Assembly: GCA_037385265.1 (NCBI GenBank)
Contig: JARRNG010000004.1
Location: forward strand, 1-36,860
DNA from: Nitrospirota bacterium
Lineage (GTDB): Bacteria > Nitrospirota > Thermodesulfovibrionia > Thermodesulfovibrionales > JdFR-86
Direction of reading: 5' to 3'
Length of the DNA stretch: 36,860 bases
How positions within the stretch are numbered: position 1 is the stretch's first letter; every line of letters begins with the position of its first letter. Under the pieces are notes generated by a model. It saw only the letters and a list, made by a program, of their open reading frames with translations, ran no database searches and was not told where the DNA came from. Shown here piece after piece: positions 30,079-36,860 of this stretch. The position numbers and the translations under genes were made by a program.

Positions 30079-31338
30079 CTACGCCCTCTGGTAGTTCACG
30101 CCCTTGTCTTCGCCGGCTATCTTGAAGAGGCCGTCGCCGCCGATGAGCTCCCTCAGCCTCTCGCGGTCGAGGTGGCAATAGAAGACCGGAGCGAGATACC
30201 CCCCGCCGGCTTCGCCCCCGCTTACGAACTTGCGGAGCGAAGCGTCGGCCTCGATAACCCTGGTGACCCCAAGTTTCCTGTAGAGCCGGATGTGCGTGTT
30301 CACGACCACCTCGTCGGGACGGACCTCGCGGAAGAGGTCGAGGGCCCTCGATGTATCGCTCTCGCTCTCGCGGGGGACGCCGGCCAGGAGGTCCACGGCG
30401 GTCCTTATCCCCGCGTCCCTCGCCCCCCGCACGATGTCTTCGATGCCCTTCCGGTATCCGGCGTCCCTTGGGAGGGAATCGACCGAGAGGGTTATCAGGT
30501 AAGCCCCTGACTTCCTCAGGAGCTTCATTAGCTCCGGCGGGGAGTCGCCGGGCTTCATGTAAAGGGCCCACCGGAGCCCCAGGTCCTCCCCGGCCATCTC
30601 CCTCAGGAATTTGAGCGAGTAGCCGAGGTCCTCGTTGAACTCGGAGTCGCAGAGGTGGAGATCCCTGAATCCCGATTCGACGAGCGCCCCGAGCTCCGCA
30701 ACCACCTCCCGCGGCTCGCGGAAGGCCACGGGCCTCTTAGCTTCCATGCAGTAGGCGCACGACGAGGAGCAGCCCCTGTGCGTCTCGAAGCCGTGGACGC
30801 CGCCCTCGGCAACGTAGGCCGCGTAGTCGAAGTCTTTCTCCCTGCGTGTGAGCGCCGACGGCGCCGAGGGGCTGCCGACCACAACTCTCCCTTTGAAGGG
30901 GCTCAGAGCGTGTGGCTCTCTAAGGATGGGGGCCAGGGCGCTTTCGCCGTCTCCGCAGACGGCGACGTCGGCGCCTACGTAATCCAATATGGCTTCGGGG
31001 TCCGCCGAGAGGGCCGAGCCGCCCATGATTATCTGCGCCGGGGTCAGCTCCCTCAGGTAGGCCACGTAATCTCTCACCTCGGGGAGGAAGTACTCGGTCT
31101 CCGGCCAGAGCACGGTGTCCACGTTCCGGATGGAGAGGCAGATGGCCTCGGGCGCGAAGTCGCTCACCGCCCTCGCAATGTCGGACTTCGGGCTCTCAGA
31201 AAAGCACAGGTCCAGCACCTGGACCTCGAACCCCTCGCGCCTGAGCGAACTTGCCAGATACTCGACACCGAGGGGAATTACCGGGGGAAACCGATACCGG
31301 TTGGTGCTGATGAAGAGAACTTTCCGCAGGCCTGCCAT
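30079..31338 (-). CDS. Cobalamin-binding radical SAM protein
   Basis: N-terminal B12-binding domain (PLG-x2-YLA, SIRNVD, GG), then ETHRGCSSSCAYC (Cx3Cx2C) and DSEFN. Confidence 0.88.
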   Translation of the reverse strand: MAGLRKVLFISTNRYRFPPVIPLGVEYLASSLRREGFEVQVLDLCFSESPKSDIARAVSDFAPEAICLSIRNVDTVLWPETEYFLPEVRDYVAYLRELTPAQIIMGGSALSADPEAILDYVGADVAVCGDGESALAPILREPHALSPFKGRVVVGSPSAPSALTRREKDFDYAAYVAEGGVHGFETHRGCSSSCAYCMEAKRPVAFREPREVVAELGALVESGFRDLHLCDSEFNEDLGYSLKFLREMAGEDLGLRWALYMKPGDSPPELMKLLRKSGAYLITLSVDSLPRDAGYRKGIEDIVRGARDAGIRTAVDLLAGVPRESESDTSRALDLFREVRPDEVVVNTHIRLYRKLGVTRVIEADASLRKFVSGGEAGGGYLAPVFYCHLDRERLRELIGGDGLFKIAGEDKGVNYQRA

Positions 31339-31385
31339 GGGGTTATTTTAATCAATCCCGGCCTGCGCGGGAAAGCCGCCTGGTG

Positions 31386-31743
31386 TCAGGGCTTGAGAAT
31401 TCTCTTCCTTTCCTCGAACTCCTCTTTGCTTATTTCACCGCTGGCGAAGCGCCGCCTGAGAATCTCTTATTTCACCGCTGGCGAAGCGCCGCCTGAGAAT
31501 CTCCATGGCGGTATCCTCTGTATGAGCGGGCCTTTCATGGCTCCTGGAGCTTACGGCGAGCCACCGGATAAGGAAGATTATCCCCACTATCACGGCCACC
31601 CAGAAGACGATCATTAGAATGCCCCAGAGCCCACCGCCGTAGCCGCCCATGCCGTAGCCGCCCATGCCGGGGCCCATGCCCCAACCGCCCCAGCCGCCCT
31701 GGACATGGGGGTAGATATTTTCTGCTGCTGCCAAAACGTTCAT
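31386..31743 (-). pseudogene. Gly/Met-rich TM + SHOCT domain protein, frameshifted by a 37-bp tandem duplication
   Basis: Removing one copy of the repeat restores ...MEILRRRFASGEISKEEFEERKRILKP* (106 aa), a canonical SHOCT ending; as assembled the ORF stops at 31435. Confidence 0.8.
31429..31502. repeat. Perfect 37-bp tandem duplication
   Basis: cttatttcaccgctggcgaagcgccgcctgagaatct at 31429-31465 and 31466-31502. Confidence 0.95.
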
Positions 31744-31763
31744 GACTCCTCCATCAGGCGCCA

Positions 31764-31795
31764 GGGGAGACGGGTTCCGGGGAACCCGCCTCCCC
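31764..31795 (-). other. Strong intergenic hairpin (about 14-15 bp) without a U tract
   Basis: GGGGAGGCGGGTTCC-CC-GGAACCCGTCTCCCC on the minus strand, between the ZraP-like and SHOCT genes. Confidence 0.6.
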
Positions 31796-31807
31796 CGCGC
31801 GCTGTAA

Positions 31808-32302
31808 TCACTGGCTGTACTTTTCGTATATCTGCTTATTGAGGTTCCAGATGTCCCCGCGCAGGCTATCGAGTTTCTTCTGGTCGGGCTGCGGCTTTCT
31901 TATCTCTTCCATGTAGTCGAACATCTTCGTGTTGAGCTCTCGCCTCATGTCCTTGGTCTCGTCGAGGAACTTCTGGTTCATGGGGCCGTATCCGGGGCCC
32001 ATGCCGTAGCCGCCCCAGCCGCCCATCATGCCAGGGCCCATGCCATAGCCGCCCATGCCAGGGCCCATGCCGTAGCCGCCCCAGCCGCCCATCATACCGG
32101 GGCCCATGCCATAGCCGTGCATGGCGCCGGGGCCAGGACAATTGTAGCCCCATCCATGGCCCTGCTGCTGTCCCTGCTGCTGCCCTCCGCCGTATCCTTG
32201 GCCTTGTTCCATCATTCCGGGACCCATCTGTGCCGCGGCCATTTCGTGGGTTACCACGAGGGTAAGGGCAACCACCATAAATACTATCAATATCCTCTTC
32301 AT
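31808..32302 (-). CDS. Periplasmic Met/Gly-repeat protein with ZraP/Spy-like helical C-terminus
   Basis: Signal peptide, GYGMGPGMM repeats, then QKFLDETKDMRREL...PDQKKL-x2-L-x2-DI; SD AAGGAGG. Confidence 0.8.
   Translation of the reverse strand: MKRILIVFMVVALTLVVTHEMAAAQMGPGMMEQGQGYGGGQQQGQQQGHGWGYNCPGPGAMHGYGMGPGMMGGWGGYGMGPGMGGYGMGPGMMGGWGGYGMGPGYGPMNQKFLDETKDMRRELNTKMFDYMEEIRKPQPDQKKLDSLRGDIWNLNKQIYEKYSQ
31995..32126 (-). repeat. 66-bp (22-aa) near-perfect coding tandem repeat, GYGMGPGMMGGWGGYGMGPGMG
   Basis: Units start at 31995 and 32061 (gggcccatgccgtagccgccccagccgcccatcat...). Confidence 0.85.
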
Positions 32303-32327
32303 CGCTGATAGCCTCCTTTAGAAGCAC

Positions 32328-32383
32328 TATAAATTTATACGCTGCTCCCACGCAGAATTTACCACAAACGCGACTAATGTCAA
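32328..32383 (-). promoter_or_regulatory. Promoter TTGACA-16-TAAATT plus downstream palindrome TATAAATTTATA for the ZraP-like gene
   Basis: -35 at 32383-32378, -10 at 32361-32356 with TG extension; perfect 12-bp palindrome at 32328-32339. Confidence 0.55.
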
Positions 32384-32387
32384 GGCG

Positions 32388-32846
32388 CTATTTTACGCAC
32401 TCCTCCAGTTCCTCCTTCAGGTATTTTTCATAGCAATTCCAGCATACGCCGTGGGTGAAGTCGGCCTCCGAGCGGCTGGCTATGTAGTGCTCGATTTCAT
32501 GCCATTCGCCTTCGCCTTTTTCAGTGCCCGTGTCGTCGCGGATCTTCTTGCAATAGGAGCATATCGGAAGCAGGCCCTCAAGGACCTTGACTTTCCGCCT
32601 CTCCCGGGTAATGACGTTGAGGTGGAAGACTATGGCCGCGCCGACGAGCGCCCCCAAGAGGGCGAAGAAGAAGGCCATTGGCAGGTGGTGGACGCTGAAG
32701 GCCTTAAACACCCTGCTCAATTCCACCCCGCTTATCGGGTGGACAAGGCCCTGAAAGACCATGGACAAGGGATGCACAAAAAACAGCCCCAGAACGAATC
32801 CGGCCAAGCCGCCCGTGAGGTATCTCTTGAGGTCCACTCGTTCCAT
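32388..32846 (-). CDS. 2-TM membrane protein with C-terminal four-Cys domain (GLLPICSYCKKIRDD...HGVC-x2-C)
   Basis: Two hydrophobic segments followed by the LLPIC-x2-CKKIR / (S/T)HG-x-C-x2-C module that is usually a tail on PAS/receiver signalling proteins. Confidence 0.8.
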   Translation of the reverse strand: MERVDLKRYLTGGLAGFVLGLFFVHPLSMVFQGLVHPISGVELSRVFKAFSVHHLPMAFFFALLGALVGAAIVFHLNVITRERRKVKVLEGLLPICSYCKKIRDDTGTEKGEGEWHEIEHYIASRSEADFTHGVCWNCYEKYLKEELEECVK

Positions 32847-32881
32847 CGCTTGATGAAACTATGGCGGATTGGTGTGAATAT

Positions 32882-33964
32882 TTAATGAAGATGCGCCGCT
32901 TTCGCGACGCCTCCGGGAGGGGGCAGGACTATCCGTGCTTTGGTAGTCTTTCCTTCGGAGAGGAAGGCCGTTTGATAGCCCGTCCCGGAGCCGCCGCGGG
33001 AGGCCGAAAGATACCAGAGGGCGGTCACCACGCTGTATTTCGGGAATTGTAGCCGGGCGAAGCCCCCGGAGCCGGTCTCAAGGGCTATCTCGTCGGCCAC
33101 CGCCCTTACCTCGGGGGAATTGTAGTTGCCGACAAGCCTTACCACGGCCCCGCCCACGGGCGAGCCCAAAGAGTCCACCACCTCGACTTCGAGGGCTGTG
33201 CCGTCCTCCATCAGCTGCATGGAGTTGTTAATCCAGTAGCGAAGCAGGGCCCTGTCCCGCGCTGGAATCCGAGGGGGCCAGGAGTGGAGCTCGTCCTTGC
33301 TGCCTCCGAGCCAGAGGGAGGCGTGGAGGAGTATCCTCTCGTAGAAGGGCCGGATCTTGAACTGCCTTGCTATCGGGCGCTCGGGCTCACTTGTGGCTCC
33401 TTCAGGGTCGTACATTGGCATGGGAAGGCCCCAATTGAGGGCCAGCCCCTCTTCGAAGAACCTGGGCGGTCTTCGCCAGTCGAAGTAGTCCCTCTCCAGC
33501 TTCCGCATTATTGCGCTCCGCTCGGGATGACCCGGCCAGATTCGGCGCTGCTGCGGGGGAGGCATCCCCCGGGGCCAGCAGCACTGGCCGTCCCTGAGGG
33601 TCTCCCCTTTTTGTATCTGCGGCGGGCCTTCGGCATACACGAGCTCGTGGTAGCTCCAGAAGGCGTTCTTCTTGTTCCTGGGGTCGATGAGCCCCAGGGC
33701 GAACTTCTCCAGCCCCTCGGCTATGGCCTCGAACCCGCGGATATGGCACTTGACGCACTCGTTTCTCGTGAAGATGGGGTGGATGTCGTCAACCCACGTT
33801 ACTCCGGGCAGGGAGCCCTCGTGCAGGGTATCGGGCACGTACGCGTCTTCCTCGGGAGGGACCGGCTGGGGAAGCCCCGGAGGCCGCACGAAATAAAGCG
33901 CGGCCAGAAGAGCGGCTATGAGTATTATCAGCGCCAGTCCTGCTCTGGAGTTCGCCTTTCTCAA
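32882..33964 (-). CDS. Membrane-anchored c-type cytochrome-like protein (single CxxCH, PSCyt1-like pattern) with C-terminal beta-sandwich
   Basis: N-terminal TM; V-x-W-x2-DI-x-PIF...CVKCH...PG-x-PE-x-S...MP...YWI; starts 1 nt after the copB stop. Confidence 0.65.
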   Translation of the reverse strand: MRKANSRAGLALIILIAALLAALYFVRPPGLPQPVPPEEDAYVPDTLHEGSLPGVTWVDDIHPIFTRNECVKCHIRGFEAIAEGLEKFALGLIDPRNKKNAFWSYHELVYAEGPPQIQKGETLRDGQCCWPRGMPPPQQRRIWPGHPERSAIMRKLERDYFDWRRPPRFFEEGLALNWGLPMPMYDPEGATSEPERPIARQFKIRPFYERILLHASLWLGGSKDELHSWPPRIPARDRALLRYWINNSMQLMEDGTALEVEVVDSLGSPVGGAVVRLVGNYNSPEVRAVADEIALETGSGGFARLQFPKYSVVTALWYLSASRGGSGTGYQTAFLSEGKTTKARIVLPPPGGVAKAAHLH

Positions 33965-33965
33965 G

Positions 33966-36035
33966 TTACCCCTCCGGGACGTCCTTCCTTATCTTCAGGA
34001 ACTTTGCGTTAACGGCCACTATCACGGTGCTCAGCGACATTAGCACCGCCCCCATGGCGGGACTAAGGAGTATGCCGTATTTATAAAGCACTCCTGCCGC
34101 AAGGGGGATGGCGAAGGCGTTGTAACCCGTGGCCCAGGCGAGGTTCTGGACCATCTTCGCGTAGGTGGCCTTGGCCAGGCCGATTATGGCCACGGCGTCA
34201 AGGGGGTTGCTCTTAACAAGCACTATATCGGCCGTCTCCACAGCCACGTCGGTGCCCGCCCCGATGGCGATGCCCACATCGGCCTGGGCCAGCGCGGGGG
34301 CGTCGTTTACCCCGTCGCCGGTCATGGCCACCACCAGGCCCCTGGCCTGCACCTCCTTGACCTTCTCGGACTTCTCCTGGGGAAGCACTTCGGCGAAGTA
34401 GTCGTCGAGGCCCAACTCCTTCGCGACCCACCTGGCCACGAGCTCGCTGTCGCCGGTGAGCATCATGCACTTGATGCCCATGTCCTTGAGCGCGGATATG
34501 GCCTTCTTGGACTCCTCCCTGATGATGTCGCCCAGGGCCAGGGCGCCAGCAACCTTTCCGTCCACGAGCACGTAAACCACTGTCTTGCCCTGCGAGGAAA
34601 GCTCGTCGAGCCTTTCCTCAGTGGCCTCCATGCTGTTTTCTCGGAGGTATGCCGGGCTGACCACCATGACCTCCTTGCCCTCGACCTTGCCCCTGGCGCC
34701 CTTGCCAGTTATGGACTCGAAATCGGAGACCTTGTAAGTGTCCTTCGCCGAGGAGGTGATGCCCTTGGCTATAGGGTGCTCGGAGTGGGCCTCGACGCTT
34801 GCGGCCAGCTTGAGTATCTCATCCTCGGAGTACTCGCCGCCGAGGCTGAGGATGTCGCTGACGCCGAAGCGCCCCTCGGTGAGGGTGCCCGTCTTGTCGA
34901 AGATTATGGCCTGGATGTTCCTGGCCTTTTCGAAGGCGGCGCGGTTTCTTATTAAAAGGCCGTTCTGGGCGGAGAGGGCCGTGGAGACGGCCACGACCAG
35001 CGGAACGGCAAGCCCGAGGGCGTGGGGACAGGTGATGACCATCACGGTCACAGTCCGCTCCAGCGAGAAGGCGAAGTCCCTTCGCGCGAGGCCAAGCCAT
35101 ACGAACAGCGTCAAGGCTCCCACGCTTATGGCCACTACCGTAAGCCAGAAAGCGGCCGTGTTGGCCAGGTCCTGCGTCCTGGACTTGCTCTCCTGGGCCC
35201 GTCTGACGAGGTCTATGACCTGCGAAAGGAAAGAGTCGGCCCCGGTCTTCTGTATCTCCACAGTCAGGGAGCCCTCGCCGTTTATGGAGCCGCCGATGAC
35301 CTTGTTGCCTTTAGCTTTCTCCACGGGCTTCGACTCTCCGGTGAGCATGGCCTCGTTGACCGAGGTCTTGCCCTCAACGATCTCCCCGTCCGCCGGGACC
35401 TTTTCGCCGGGCTTGACGAGCACCCTGTCGCCGCCTTTGAGCTCGTCGAGGGGCACGTCCTCGGCGCTGCCGTCCTCTTTCAGGAGGTGGGCCTCTGATG
35501 GGAGCAGCTTGGCGAGCTCTCCAAGGGCCTTCGAGGCGCCCATCACGGACTTCATCTCTATCCAGTGGCCCAGGAGCATGATGTCTATAAGAGTCGCCAG
35601 CTCCCAGAAGAAGACCTTCCCCGCAAGGCCGAAGACCACCGCCGAGCTGTAGAAGTAGGCCACGGAGATGGCCAGGGCTATGAGGGTCATCATGCCGGGG
35701 CTCTTCTTCCCCAACTCGTCGAAGAGGCCCTTGAGGAAGGGCCAGCCGCCGTAGAAGAAGACGAAGGAGGAGAGGGCGAAGAGGGCGTACATGTCGCCGG
35801 GGAAGGCGAGGCTGAAGCCCAGGAACTTCTGTATCAGGGGAGAGATTACGAGTATGGGCGTCGTGGCGGCAAGGGATATCCAGAACCTCCGCCTGAAGTC
35901 CGCCACCATGTGGGCGTGGTGGCTCTCGTGGCCCCCGTGTCCTCCTTCTCCCCCATGGCCCTTATGCCCGGCGTGTCCCCCGTGGCTTTCGTGTTCTTCT
36001 TTGATGGGTTCGATTCTATCACCGTTTGATATCAT
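33966..36035 (-). CDS. copB: Copper-translocating P1B-type ATPase (CopB / P1B-3 type)
   Basis: His-rich N-terminus; TGES, CPHALGLA, DKTGT, SEHP, GDGVNDAP, YN and MSLST motifs. Exact start uncertain. Confidence 0.93.
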   Translation of the reverse strand: MISNGDRIEPIKEEHESHGGHAGHKGHGGEGGHGGHESHHAHMVADFRRRFWISLAATTPILVISPLIQKFLGFSLAFPGDMYALFALSSFVFFYGGWPFLKGLFDELGKKSPGMMTLIALAISVAYFYSSAVVFGLAGKVFFWELATLIDIMLLGHWIEMKSVMGASKALGELAKLLPSEAHLLKEDGSAEDVPLDELKGGDRVLVKPGEKVPADGEIVEGKTSVNEAMLTGESKPVEKAKGNKVIGGSINGEGSLTVEIQKTGADSFLSQVIDLVRRAQESKSRTQDLANTAAFWLTVVAISVGALTLFVWLGLARRDFAFSLERTVTVMVITCPHALGLAVPLVVAVSTALSAQNGLLIRNRAAFEKARNIQAIIFDKTGTLTEGRFGVSDILSLGGEYSEDEILKLAASVEAHSEHPIAKGITSSAKDTYKVSDFESITGKGARGKVEGKEVMVVSPAYLRENSMEATEERLDELSSQGKTVVYVLVDGKVAGALALGDIIREESKKAISALKDMGIKCMMLTGDSELVARWVAKELGLDDYFAEVLPQEKSEKVKEVQARGLVVAMTGDGVNDAPALAQADVGIAIGAGTDVAVETADIVLVKSNPLDAVAIIGLAKATYAKMVQNLAWATGYNAFAIPLAAGVLYKYGILLSPAMGAVLMSLSTVIVAVNAKFLKIRKDVPEG

Positions 36036-36043
36036 AGTGAAGG

Positions 36044-36860
36044 ATGCCGAGGGGGTATCTGCAGACGGGTCAGAAGACCTGCCACGACACTCCGGGCCGA
36101 GAGGTCCCTTGCAGGGGCAGCGGCCAGGACGCCGAGTTCGGCAAGGGAGTCCCCTGGCCCTCGCCCAGGTTCGAGCCTCTGGGCGAGACCGTGCGGGACA
36201 CTCTGACGGGGCTAGTGTGGACGCGCGACGCCAACCCGGCGGAGTTCCCCCTATCTTGGGCGGAGGCCCTGGAGTTCGTCTCCGGGATGAATCGCGATGA
36301 GGCCTTCGGCCACTCCGACTGGCGCCTTCCCAACCGGAGAGAGCTCAGGAGCCTTATGAGCCACCAGACGAGGAAGCCGGCCCTTCCCGAGGGGCACCCC
36401 TTTGAAAACATCTTCCTAGGATGGTATTGGACCTCGACCACCGCCGCCATCAACACGGCCTTCGCCTGGTACGTACACATGGAGGGAGCCCGGATGTTCT
36501 ATGGCGGCAAGGAGCAGTTCTTCCTGCTCTGGCCCGTAAGGGGGGAGAGCACGGGGGTACTGCCCCGCACGGGGCAGGCGCGGTGTTTCGACCCGGCGGG
36601 CCGGCCCGCGGAATGCGCGGGAACTGGCCAGGACGGCGAGCTGAAGATGGGAGTTCCGTGGCCCGAGCCGCGGTTCGAGGTGGCCGGAGACGCCGTGATA
36701 GACAACCTTACCGGGCTCCGCTGGGCCAGGGCGGCAAGCCTCACGGATGGAAAATTGACCTGGCAGGGAGCCCTCGAAGCGGTGGCAAGGCTCAACGGAA
36801 GCTCGGACGCCCTGTGGCGCCTTCCGAACATCAACGAGCTGGAATCGCTCGTCGATTGCG
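36044..36860 (+). CDS. Tandem DUF1566 (Lcl C-terminal-like) domain protein, partial
   Basis: Manual translation from ATG 36044: QTGQ-x2-C...GQD...WP-x-PRF...D-x-LTGL-x-W...WRLPN-x2-EL-x-SL occurs twice, with YWTST and WPVR; frame open to the window end, so absent from the ORF track. Confidence 0.88.
   Translation, partial: MPRGYLQTGQKTCHDTPGREVPCRGSGQDAEFGKGVPWPSPRFEPLGETVRDTLTGLVWTRDANPAEFPLSWAEALEFVSGMNRDEAFGHSDWRLPNRRELRSLMSHQTRKPALPEGHPFENIFLGWYWTSTTAAINTAFAWYVHMEGARMFYGGKEQFFLLWPVRGESTGVLPRTGQARCFDPAGRPAECAGTGQDGELKMGVPWPEPRFEVAGDAVIDNLTGLRWARAASLTDGKLTWQGALEAVARLNGSSDALWRLPNINELESLVDC

Follow-up and report, generated by a model that had tools for sequence, protein, structure and literature searches.

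In staphylococcal copB-mco and copXL (copBL) loci, the gene for a P1B-3 copper ATPase, CopB or CopX, lies directly upstream of one for a multicopper oxidase (MCO) or for CopL, a membrane-tethered lipoprotein thought to bind copper outside the membrane (PMC10233261). PcoA and PcoB constitute the conserved core of the pco operon (PMC5566968), and CopI and CopJ are small, copper-induced periplasmic proteins, of which CopI is needed for tolerance both with and without oxygen (PMC4600104). Copper is more toxic in the absence of oxygen (PMC9040851) and the MCO, a known periplasmic detoxifier, requires O2 (PMC12510620). The wider question is how bacteria of anoxic sediments handle the Cu(I) that is pumped into their periplasm. 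The DNA analysed, referred to below as the window, is the complete 36,860 nt contig JARRNG010000004.1 (contig C4) of a Nitrospirota genome (2.01 Mb in 150 contigs, 92% complete). On its minus strand, a copB gene is followed immediately by a gene, here designated cyt360, that encodes a putative mono-haem protein of 360 amino acids (aa). In the account that we favour, to which we assign a probability of roughly 0.55, cyt360 would be a haem-carrying accessory of copper-detoxification modules with a redox action on copper. The copper linkage of its homologues, the near-invariance of its haem and thiol motifs and a distant relationship to cytochromes c carry this account.

The cyt360 gene and its copper-linked relatives

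P1B-3 ATPases are defined by a CPH motif and by MSxST in the last helix. The 689 aa product of copB (33966..36035, minus strand) has CPH and MSLST, E1-E2_ATPase and Hydrolase domains and a TIGR01511 match of 636.6 bits (E 3.9e-191; cut-off 397), with no HMA domain among its Pfam matches and a His-rich N-terminus of the kind described as a P1B-3 hallmark (PMC10233261); together these mark it, by sequence, as a CopB-type copper pump. The copB TAA (33966-33968) is separated by 1 nt from the TTG (33962-33964) that starts cyt360 (32882..33964, minus strand), a GGAGG lies ~7 nt upstream of this TTG, and a third gene, tm4C152, begins 35 nt beyond the cyt360 stop. These open reading frames (ORFs), their spacing and the motifs picked out in a first-pass annotation of the window are all present where they were placed: CVKCH (C70 to H74; 33743..33757), the candidate haem attachment site and proximal His; GQCCWP (G126 to P131; 33572..33589), with its vicinal Cys pair; and WGLPMPM (W178 to M184; 33413..33433), with the PMP methionine. 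The description of the protein as a putative mono-haem protein draws on the ORF, its conserved family, an AlphaFold2 (AF2) model and hhalign comparisons. The minus-strand gene order is copB, cyt360, tm4C152, a Gly/Met-rich gene, a SHOCT gene and a B12-radical SAM gene. Contigs from the independent public sequencing runs X1 and X20 bridge the Gly/Met-rich, tm4C152 and cyt360 genes, and one X1 contig (2254 nt, 1 mismatch) covers 32066-34319, continuing into copB.

At E<=0.1, neither Pfam nor NCBIfam has a match to the window protein. Searching 5.8 billion clustered proteins identified the cyt360 family as 80 clusters at 90% identity, all unnamed or 'hypothetical', and a profile search of 1.84 billion representatives returned 27 matches at E<=1e-3, ~5 of them full-length family clusters and the rest mostly fragments. 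The gene is present in 4 of 401 sampled genomes of the host phylum, the host genome included, and a tblastn search of 72,556 PLSDB plasmids gave no match. Motif conservation was counted over 83 aligned rows, the denominators being the rows that cover each site. C..CH, whose conservation had been proposed as a test, is conserved in 77 of 78 rows (the exception, P0005, reads CIKYH), the vicinal Cys-Cys in 80 of 81 (P0201 has SA) and M182, of the PMP motif, in 79 of 80; H62, Y110, R140/R141, W143, D237 and W244 are invariant in all rows that cover them. The length of the post-PMP loop differs between rows, and the loop has at least three His in 44 of 80, with a maximum of 10 His in 51 residues. 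The GQCCWP pair could serve as a Cu(I) site, as the distal haem ligand or as a redox disulfide, M182 could be an axial Met or a thioether ligand of Cu(I), and M182, C128/C129, H62 and H106 are all candidates for the sixth haem ligand. Some family members depart from the standard architecture. A DUF1858 domain lies after the cyt360 homologue in L030 (1702-1956) and is fused to the C-terminus of P0018 (412 aa). In the Nitrospirae JdFR-88 record, the homologue is split across frames (L011/L046, 5566-7946; G166:C3, 96864-97639; three pieces in G166) and the final piece in L011 runs on into a radical SAM ORF, the order there being Gly/Met-rich gene, SHOCT gene, cyt360 and radical SAM gene.

Loci with cyt360 were gathered from species genomes (11), from metagenomes (22) and from a related genome (L063), and neighbours in the flanking DNA were called by phmmer seeds and Pfam. 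The record titles name Nitrospirae/Nitrospirales, Desulfobacteraceae, Desulfobulbia, Syntrophobacterales and Thermodesulfobacteriota. With duplicates merged (L048 with L003, L040 with L006, L041 with L007, L046 with L011, L029 with L028, L043 with L037 and L064 with L004) there are 29 distinct loci, including the window, and copper genes adjoin cyt360 in 15 of them, so that the linkage of homologues to metal genes, on which the idea of a copper module had hung, is upheld. Nine have an MCO gene (L002, L003, L007, L008, L030, L033, L037/43, L044 and L049), with PcoB alongside in five of the nine (L002, L008, L037/43, L044 and L049) and the order MCO-PcoB-cyt360 in L002, L043, L044 and L049. Four have a P1B ATPase, of the CPH type in the window and L028, and of the CPC type with YHS/HMBD in L005 and L010. 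The last two, L011 and, weakly, L042, have Gly/Met-rich and/or SHOCT genes only. In a maximum-likelihood tree of 23 rows, from which duplicates, the frameshifted L011 and the fragments L034, L036, L043, L045, L047 and L049 were left out, the P1B-linked copies fall into two separate clades, each adjoining MCO-linked copies. This scatter suggests that partner genes were exchanged within a copper context that persisted, which argues for a copper-related role that is independent of CopB in particular. A P-type ATPase encoded in L001, split over two ORFs, was considered as a further copper pump and rejected; it resembles CopB only weakly (E 1e-27 and 5e-15), and L001 is therefore counted as free of copper genes.

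Cytochrome c relationship and a proposed role in copper handling

The sole matches outside the family among the 1.84 billion proteins are multi-repeat cytochromes of the PSCyt1, Cytochrome_CBB3 and PccH families, aligned at the CxxCH region. The four weakest representative matches (E 1e-5 to 1e-4) have Cytochrome_CBB3 and PccH Pfam matches, and three also have PSCyt1. These four cytochromes were cut into 16 units and compared by hhalign with the cyt360 family profile, which aligned at 97.3% (E 1.8e-11) over residues 51-155 and, with its N-terminal part only, at 97.8% (E 9.4e-13) over residues 53-101. The sequence context shared by cyt360 and cytochrome c repeats is TW.DDI.PIF...C..CH, and in the window the helix DDIHPIF precedes CVKCH. 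The full-length alignment puts RDGQCCWP at the MPxG/HPG ligand motif of the units, within a stretch that is without confidence marks, and PPRIPARDRALLRYWINN matches the 'WI' helix of the units weakly, at 42%. Of the PSCyt1 resemblance reported in the first-pass annotation, a distant relationship thus stands; membership of the Pfam family does not, as detailed below, and the case for the 'RYWI' helix is weak.

The N-terminus of cyt360 is basic and then forms a hydrophobic helix (residues 2-25), which is the transmembrane (TM) helix of a full-length AF2 model built from 37 rows and whose membrane span we place at residues ~8-25; some relatives have signal-peptide-like N-termini. The same model ends in a beta-sandwich (residues 255-346, pLDDT ~90; 32927..33202, minus strand), the only part matched by Foldseek (3e8v, 9hfj and 6hif_Y; E 2e-5 to 2e-4), and these matches are transthyretin-like or carboxypeptidase-regulatory domains. 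Weak Pfam matches to Big_1 and CarboxypepD_reg are present in 11 and 7, respectively, of 37 family members, and an Atlas cluster pairs PSCyt1 with CarboxypepD_reg (score 0.84), which we take as a lead only. The 83-row alignment gave a model of residues 45-255 (pLDDT 75.4) with an N-terminal helix that precedes CxxCH and a C-terminal helix over ARDRALLRYWINN. VIA-align comparison of this model with 48,161 chains gave six chains at Z>=2, the top three of which are c-type cytochromes, namely FoxE (Z 4.6, root-mean-square deviation 3.5, 93 residues aligned), PccH (Z 3.6) and YhjA (Z 2.8), all with weak scores. The domain at residues ~50-250 is most readily interpreted as a distant and greatly enlarged relative of the PSCyt1/PccH-type cytochromes c.

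The host genome encodes a system II cytochrome c maturation apparatus (ResB and CcsA, on contig C51) and has 42 ORFs with at least two CxxCH motifs, up to 14 in one ORF. An exported CxxCH protein would therefore meet working haem-attachment machinery, and cyt360, if exported, should be able to reach it. The genome also encodes a 703 aa MCO with a twin-arginine translocation (TAT) signal on contig C8, dsrAB, three COX1-family genes and cytochrome bd, and the DNA of the window is present in 20 DNA sequencing runs from 16 studies of marsh, mangrove, soil and salt-marsh metagenomes, with no RNA run found to carry it. From these genes and habitats, the host looks like a sulfur-cycling sediment bacterium that meets oxygen at times. 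The first-pass annotation had envisaged a copper export module in which a haem protein acts rather than an MCO, in an anaerobe. The module, with a haem-motif protein as its accessory, survives; the substitution for the oxidase does not, as an MCO adjoins the gene in more than twice as many loci as a P1B ATPase and the host itself has one, and with O2 reductases encoded as well as dsrAB, 'in an anaerobe' is too strong. The idea of cyt360 replacing the oxidase in an MCO-less organism was accordingly rejected. Two further features of the host genome were noted. The dsrA match (G000:C48:12988-14148, minus strand; 544.9 bits) contains one in-frame TAG, and the gene for a third P1B ATPase immediately precedes a COX1-family gene (G000:C11 4345-8703), separate from the CopB module; the pair resembles a CcoI/FixI-type pump next to an oxidase gene.

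In the mechanism that we propose, cyt360 would face the periplasm, held at the inner membrane by its N-terminal anchor, for which a cleavable signal peptide would substitute in some relatives. Haem c would be attached at C70 and C73, with H74 as the proximal ligand, within the expanded, divergent cytochrome c domain. In the window, the protein would be co-produced with CopB, the Cu(I) pump; in linked relatives, its gene sits beside those of an MCO with PcoB or of a CopA-type pump. Periplasmic Cu(I) would be caught at a thiolate/thioether site formed by the Cys-Cys pair and/or the PMP methionine, presumably assisted in most relatives by the His-rich loop, and the haem would exchange an electron with the bound copper, most plausibly in the direction Cu(I) to Cu(II). 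The electron could then pass to the periplasmic cytochrome pool, or the copper be handed to an oxidase, so that cyt360 would work beside whichever copper machine its locus holds. Gene order, the family motifs, the remote kinship with cytochrome c, the copper linkage and the host's haem-attachment genes are read directly from genomic data, whereas periplasmic topology, attachment of haem, binding of copper and the direction in which electrons flow are inferred. The parts of this account differ in strength: that cyt360 is an accessory protein of copper modules is probable, that it carries haem is likely to a slightly lesser degree, and that it acts by redox on copper is a tentative proposal with the odds somewhat against it.

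Several observations weigh against this account. In the full-length AF2 model, the middle domain, where the haem would lie, has a pLDDT of 31-67; the 45-255 model has no Foldseek match at E<=0.001, and Z scores of 2.8-4.6 fall in the range that VIA-align calls common. A profile search of the PDB gave nothing at E<=10. No family member of 37 matches PSCyt1 (PF07635) at E<=5, one of the 37 matches the PccH Pfam family (E 0.13), and no Pfam cytochrome threshold is reached. One row (P0005) lacks the second haem Cys, another (P0201) lacks the Cys-Cys pair, and the window copy has no His in the loop after PMP. Fourteen of the 29 loci have no copper gene. Seven of these are on almost flankless contigs (L009, L032, L034, L035, L036, L045 and L047), and the other seven are free of copper genes despite more than ~1.6 kb of flank (L001, L004, L006/40, L031, L038, L039 and L063); three of the latter, the long-flank loci L004, L039 and L063, form one clade in the tree. 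In addition, the MCO and O2 reductases of the host mean that it does not require an O2-independent oxidase. In a more ambitious version of the proposal, the family is a haem-based, O2-independent cuprous oxidase or copper redox switch. A cysteine of the CC pair would then be the distal ligand of a His/Cys haem c, and Cu(I) released by CopB or CopA would displace the thiolate and be oxidised, with the electron passing to the periplasmic multihaem cytochrome network. If true, Cu(I) would be detoxified in sediment bacteria when the O2-dependent MCO cannot work, but we consider this version improbable.

An account without redox chemistry has to be set beside the favoured one. As a copper chaperone or sponge, cyt360 would bind Cu(I)/Cu(II) directly, its ligands being the reduced Cys of CxxCH and of CC together with the PMP methionine and the His loop, with haem either absent or structural, and would trap copper released by the pump, blocking its re-entry or passing it to the oxidase or PcoB much as CopL, PcoC or CusF might. 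Cys, Met and His are the classical copper ligands, all three motifs are near-invariant, the post-PMP loop is His-rich in over half of the rows, and the lack of a match above any cytochrome family threshold is easily accommodated. The position of cyt360 after PcoB in L002, L043, L044 and L049 is, moreover, that of PcoC, which follows PcoB in pcoABCD. A pairing of CopB with an extracytoplasmic lipoprotein has also been described (PMC10233261). However, genuine cytochrome c repeats have the same TW.DDI.PIF...C..CH context, cytochromes lead the fold matches, and an exported CxxCH protein in a system II host with dozens of cytochromes would normally be expected to receive haem, so that a sponge of this kind seems unlikely.

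The favoured account also assumes that cyt360 touches copper at all. It might instead be an envelope redox or stress protein, either an electron carrier for the neighbouring MCO or for some other periplasmic enzyme, or a thiol-disulfide protector, acting through Cys-Cys, that keeps copper from damaging cytochrome c maturation or further proteins of the envelope. The neighbours give this some substance, in that they include FtsH (L006/L040 and L031), three HSP20 genes (L001), a DsbD_TM protein (L008), class I cytochromes c (L007 and L038) and a rhodanese-like periplasmic protein (L002, L006/L040 and L031), and cytochrome c assembly is a described periplasmic target of copper (PMC4600104). The PMP motif and the His-rich loops nevertheless indicate direct contact with metal, and the window and the flanks of L005 and L010 contain a pump and no oxidase; we regard such a role as distinctly unlikely. 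Most remote is the idea that a respiratory or otherwise unrelated cytochrome came by chance to follow copB in this lineage. It finds some encouragement in L004 (G138), L039 and L063 (G282), where long flanks show no nearby copper genes, but an MCO or P1B ATPase lies within a few kb of flank in 13 of the 29 loci, and we estimate, from ~4 such genes per 2 Mb, that only ~2-3% of random genes would have one within +/-6 kb. Chance would also have to account for the 1 nt spacing to copB combined with a Shine-Dalgarno sequence of its own, and for a linkage that repeats in two phyla with different partner genes. A complex prediction for CopB (45-689) with cyt360 (1-255) scored 0.00 in two runs; the controls did not fold and it gives no verdict. 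A haem-carrying accessory of copper modules thus remains the account that we favour.

Other genes of the locus and transcription units

The gene downstream of cyt360, tm4C152 (32388..32846, minus strand), encodes a 152 aa protein with two hydrophobic helices, which carry HP..SM..HP and HHLPM, followed by a predicted cytoplasmic four-Cys C-terminal domain (residues ~89-140; nt 32427-32582). It matches no Pfam or NCBIfam family, and the domain has no Pfam model. A search for the four-Cys domain returned 3172 matches, in which the domain is C-terminal and, in many, preceded by REC or PAS. In 25 aligned proteins that include such fusions, C96, C99, W115, F130, H132, C135 and C138 are invariant, and tm4C152 conforms to the motif LLPIC..CKKIRDD...W...Y....F.HG.C..C. 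The REC and PAS fusions point to a widespread signalling output module, for which a literature search with one motif, CKKIR, found no relevant description, and which is a subject separate from cyt360; tm4C152 is, by its motif, a membrane-anchored copy of it. The initial description of a stand-alone four-Cys protein therefore needs amending, as the domain is commonly fused and relatives in four genomes are without copper neighbours. Only in the window, L028/L029 and L036 does the full-length two-TM form accompany cyt360; in four other genomes of the phylum, its full-length homologues adjoin unrelated genes, and in G138 and G166 the cyt360 and tm4C152 genes are on separate contigs. A copper-specific sensor family was considered and, given these four homologues, rejected. 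From its position, tm4C152 may possibly act as a local membrane sensor or regulator of the operon.

The copB-cyt360-tm4C152-Gly/Met-rich-SHOCT gene order recurs in L028/L029. The Gly/Met-rich gene (31808..32302, minus strand) encodes a secreted 164 aa protein with MGPGMM repeats and a helical C-terminus, which Pfam and NCBIfam scans assigned to no family. Homologous genes accompany cyt360 in L011 and L028/L029 (E 1e-15 to 4e-21), with a weak counterpart in L042 (E 4e-6), and the protein is a candidate periplasmic Cu(I) binder. The next gene (31435..31743, minus strand) encodes a small membrane protein with a C-terminal SHOCT domain. Its Pfam match is partial (E 0.035) because an exact 37 nt tandem duplication (31429-31503; two exact copies found by TRF) shifts the frame. 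The 37 nt are absent from the contigs of all four runs (4/4), the reading frame after the second copy encodes an intact SHOCT tail, and the L028 orthologue scores 34.8 bits to SHOCT, above the cut-off; the duplication probably reflects either a misassembly or a variant that is rare. The B12-radical SAM gene further downstream was considered as a member of the module and rejected, as the radical SAM gene that follows cyt360 in L011 is non-homologous at E<=1e-4.

On the other side of copB, on the plus strand, lies a gene for an Lcl_C (DUF1566) repeat protein (36044..36859; PF07603, E 2.3e-48) that is incomplete because the contig stops there. This gene and copB diverge, their start codons 8 nt apart, and its product has no obvious signal peptide and carries a Cys motif, TGQ..C...C.G.GQD, before each repeat. 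Members of this family also adjoin copB, again divergently, in L028 (2-502) and L029 (1479-2510), and lie downstream of the MCO gene in L007 (9236-10252), and so the Lcl_C protein may be part of the copper module. The rhodanese-like protein mentioned above has a signal peptide and, at its active site, an unusual Cys/Met loop, YCMxGxMG, and its gene is directly beside the cyt360 homologue in three distinct loci (L002, 5172-5591, minus strand; L006, 3974-4426; L031, 1564-1983).

A sigma-70-like sequence, TTGACA-16-TAAATT with TG (32356..32383, minus strand), lies between tm4C152 and the Gly/Met-rich gene and matches the consensus at 10 of 12 positions; the region had 2 such matches against 1.4 expected from shuffles. 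Its position 3' of tm4C152 suggests that copB-cyt360-tm4C152 form a single transcription unit, and the Gly/Met-rich and SHOCT genes another, a division that relies on a consensus match only. Terminator-like matches fall within genes and their T-runs are poor, no Rfam family matched in 31000-36860, and a search for inverted repeats near the copB start and the Gly/Met-rich promoter found one weak pair, within the Lcl_C gene, and none at the promoter. A second sigma-70-like match, TTCACT-17-TAGAAT (36013-36041, minus strand), overlaps the annotated copB ATG, which implies that the promoter is elsewhere, inside the Lcl_C gene, or that the true copB start differs; the start is thus uncertain by a few codons. 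Contigs of runs X1 and X17 have a 12 nt in-frame insertion at ~36003, in the region encoding the His-rich N-terminus of CopB, which indicates that the length of this His-rich region varies in the population.

Comparison with described systems

A literature search in which most subscription journals were not covered found no description of the cyt360 family, nor of its QCCWP motif, and we rate it as a new accessory family of copper-resistance clusters, undescribed in the searchable literature. It appears to have been recruited repeatedly beside copper pumps and oxidases in Nitrospirota and Thermodesulfobacteriota and so makes a specific candidate, amenable to cloning, for a new accessory function in the handling of copper. 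If its haem and copper sites interact, cyt360 would exemplify a new class of copper redox proteins; if they do not, it would still be a new component of copper clusters that deserves a family name.

Among small copper-resistance proteins, CopI (cupredoxin-like) and CopJ (with CxxC) of Rubrivivax gelatinosus resemble cyt360 in that their genes are beside that of a copper ATPase and their Cys motifs are presumed copper sites. CopG has a CxCC cluster, and the copper clusters of Cupriavidus and Xanthomonas include 'cytochrome c' genes, copJ and copM; a Cupriavidus paper names copJ but gives no description of it. There is, however, no sequence relationship between cyt360 and these proteins, and neither the window protein nor the 37 family members have PcoC/CopC, CusF or CopL among their matches. 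With the PSCyt1, PccH and FoxE cytochromes, cyt360 shares the N-terminal helix followed by CxxCH, but the Z scores are 4.6 or below, and its domain is ~2x as long and has inserts with GQCCWP, RRIW and WGLPMP.

In gene arrangement, the closest parallels are the pco and staphylococcal loci. In L002, L043, L044 and L049, cyt360 takes the place after PcoB that PcoC has in pcoABCD. PcoC is not known to have a haem motif or a vicinal Cys pair, whereas cyt360 has both, and cyt360 has no similarity to CopC/PcoC or PcoD, for which there are no Pfam matches in the scanned loci. As in copB-mco/copXL, the window has a His-rich, HMA-less CopB encoded directly upstream of a membrane-anchored, predicted periplasmic partner. 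That partner is, in contrast, unrelated in sequence to those of the staphylococci and without a Pfam match, and it has a conserved CxxCH in a cytochrome c-like context; the family belongs to Gram-negative sediment lineages, in which it is found more commonly beside MCO and PcoB genes than beside a pump.

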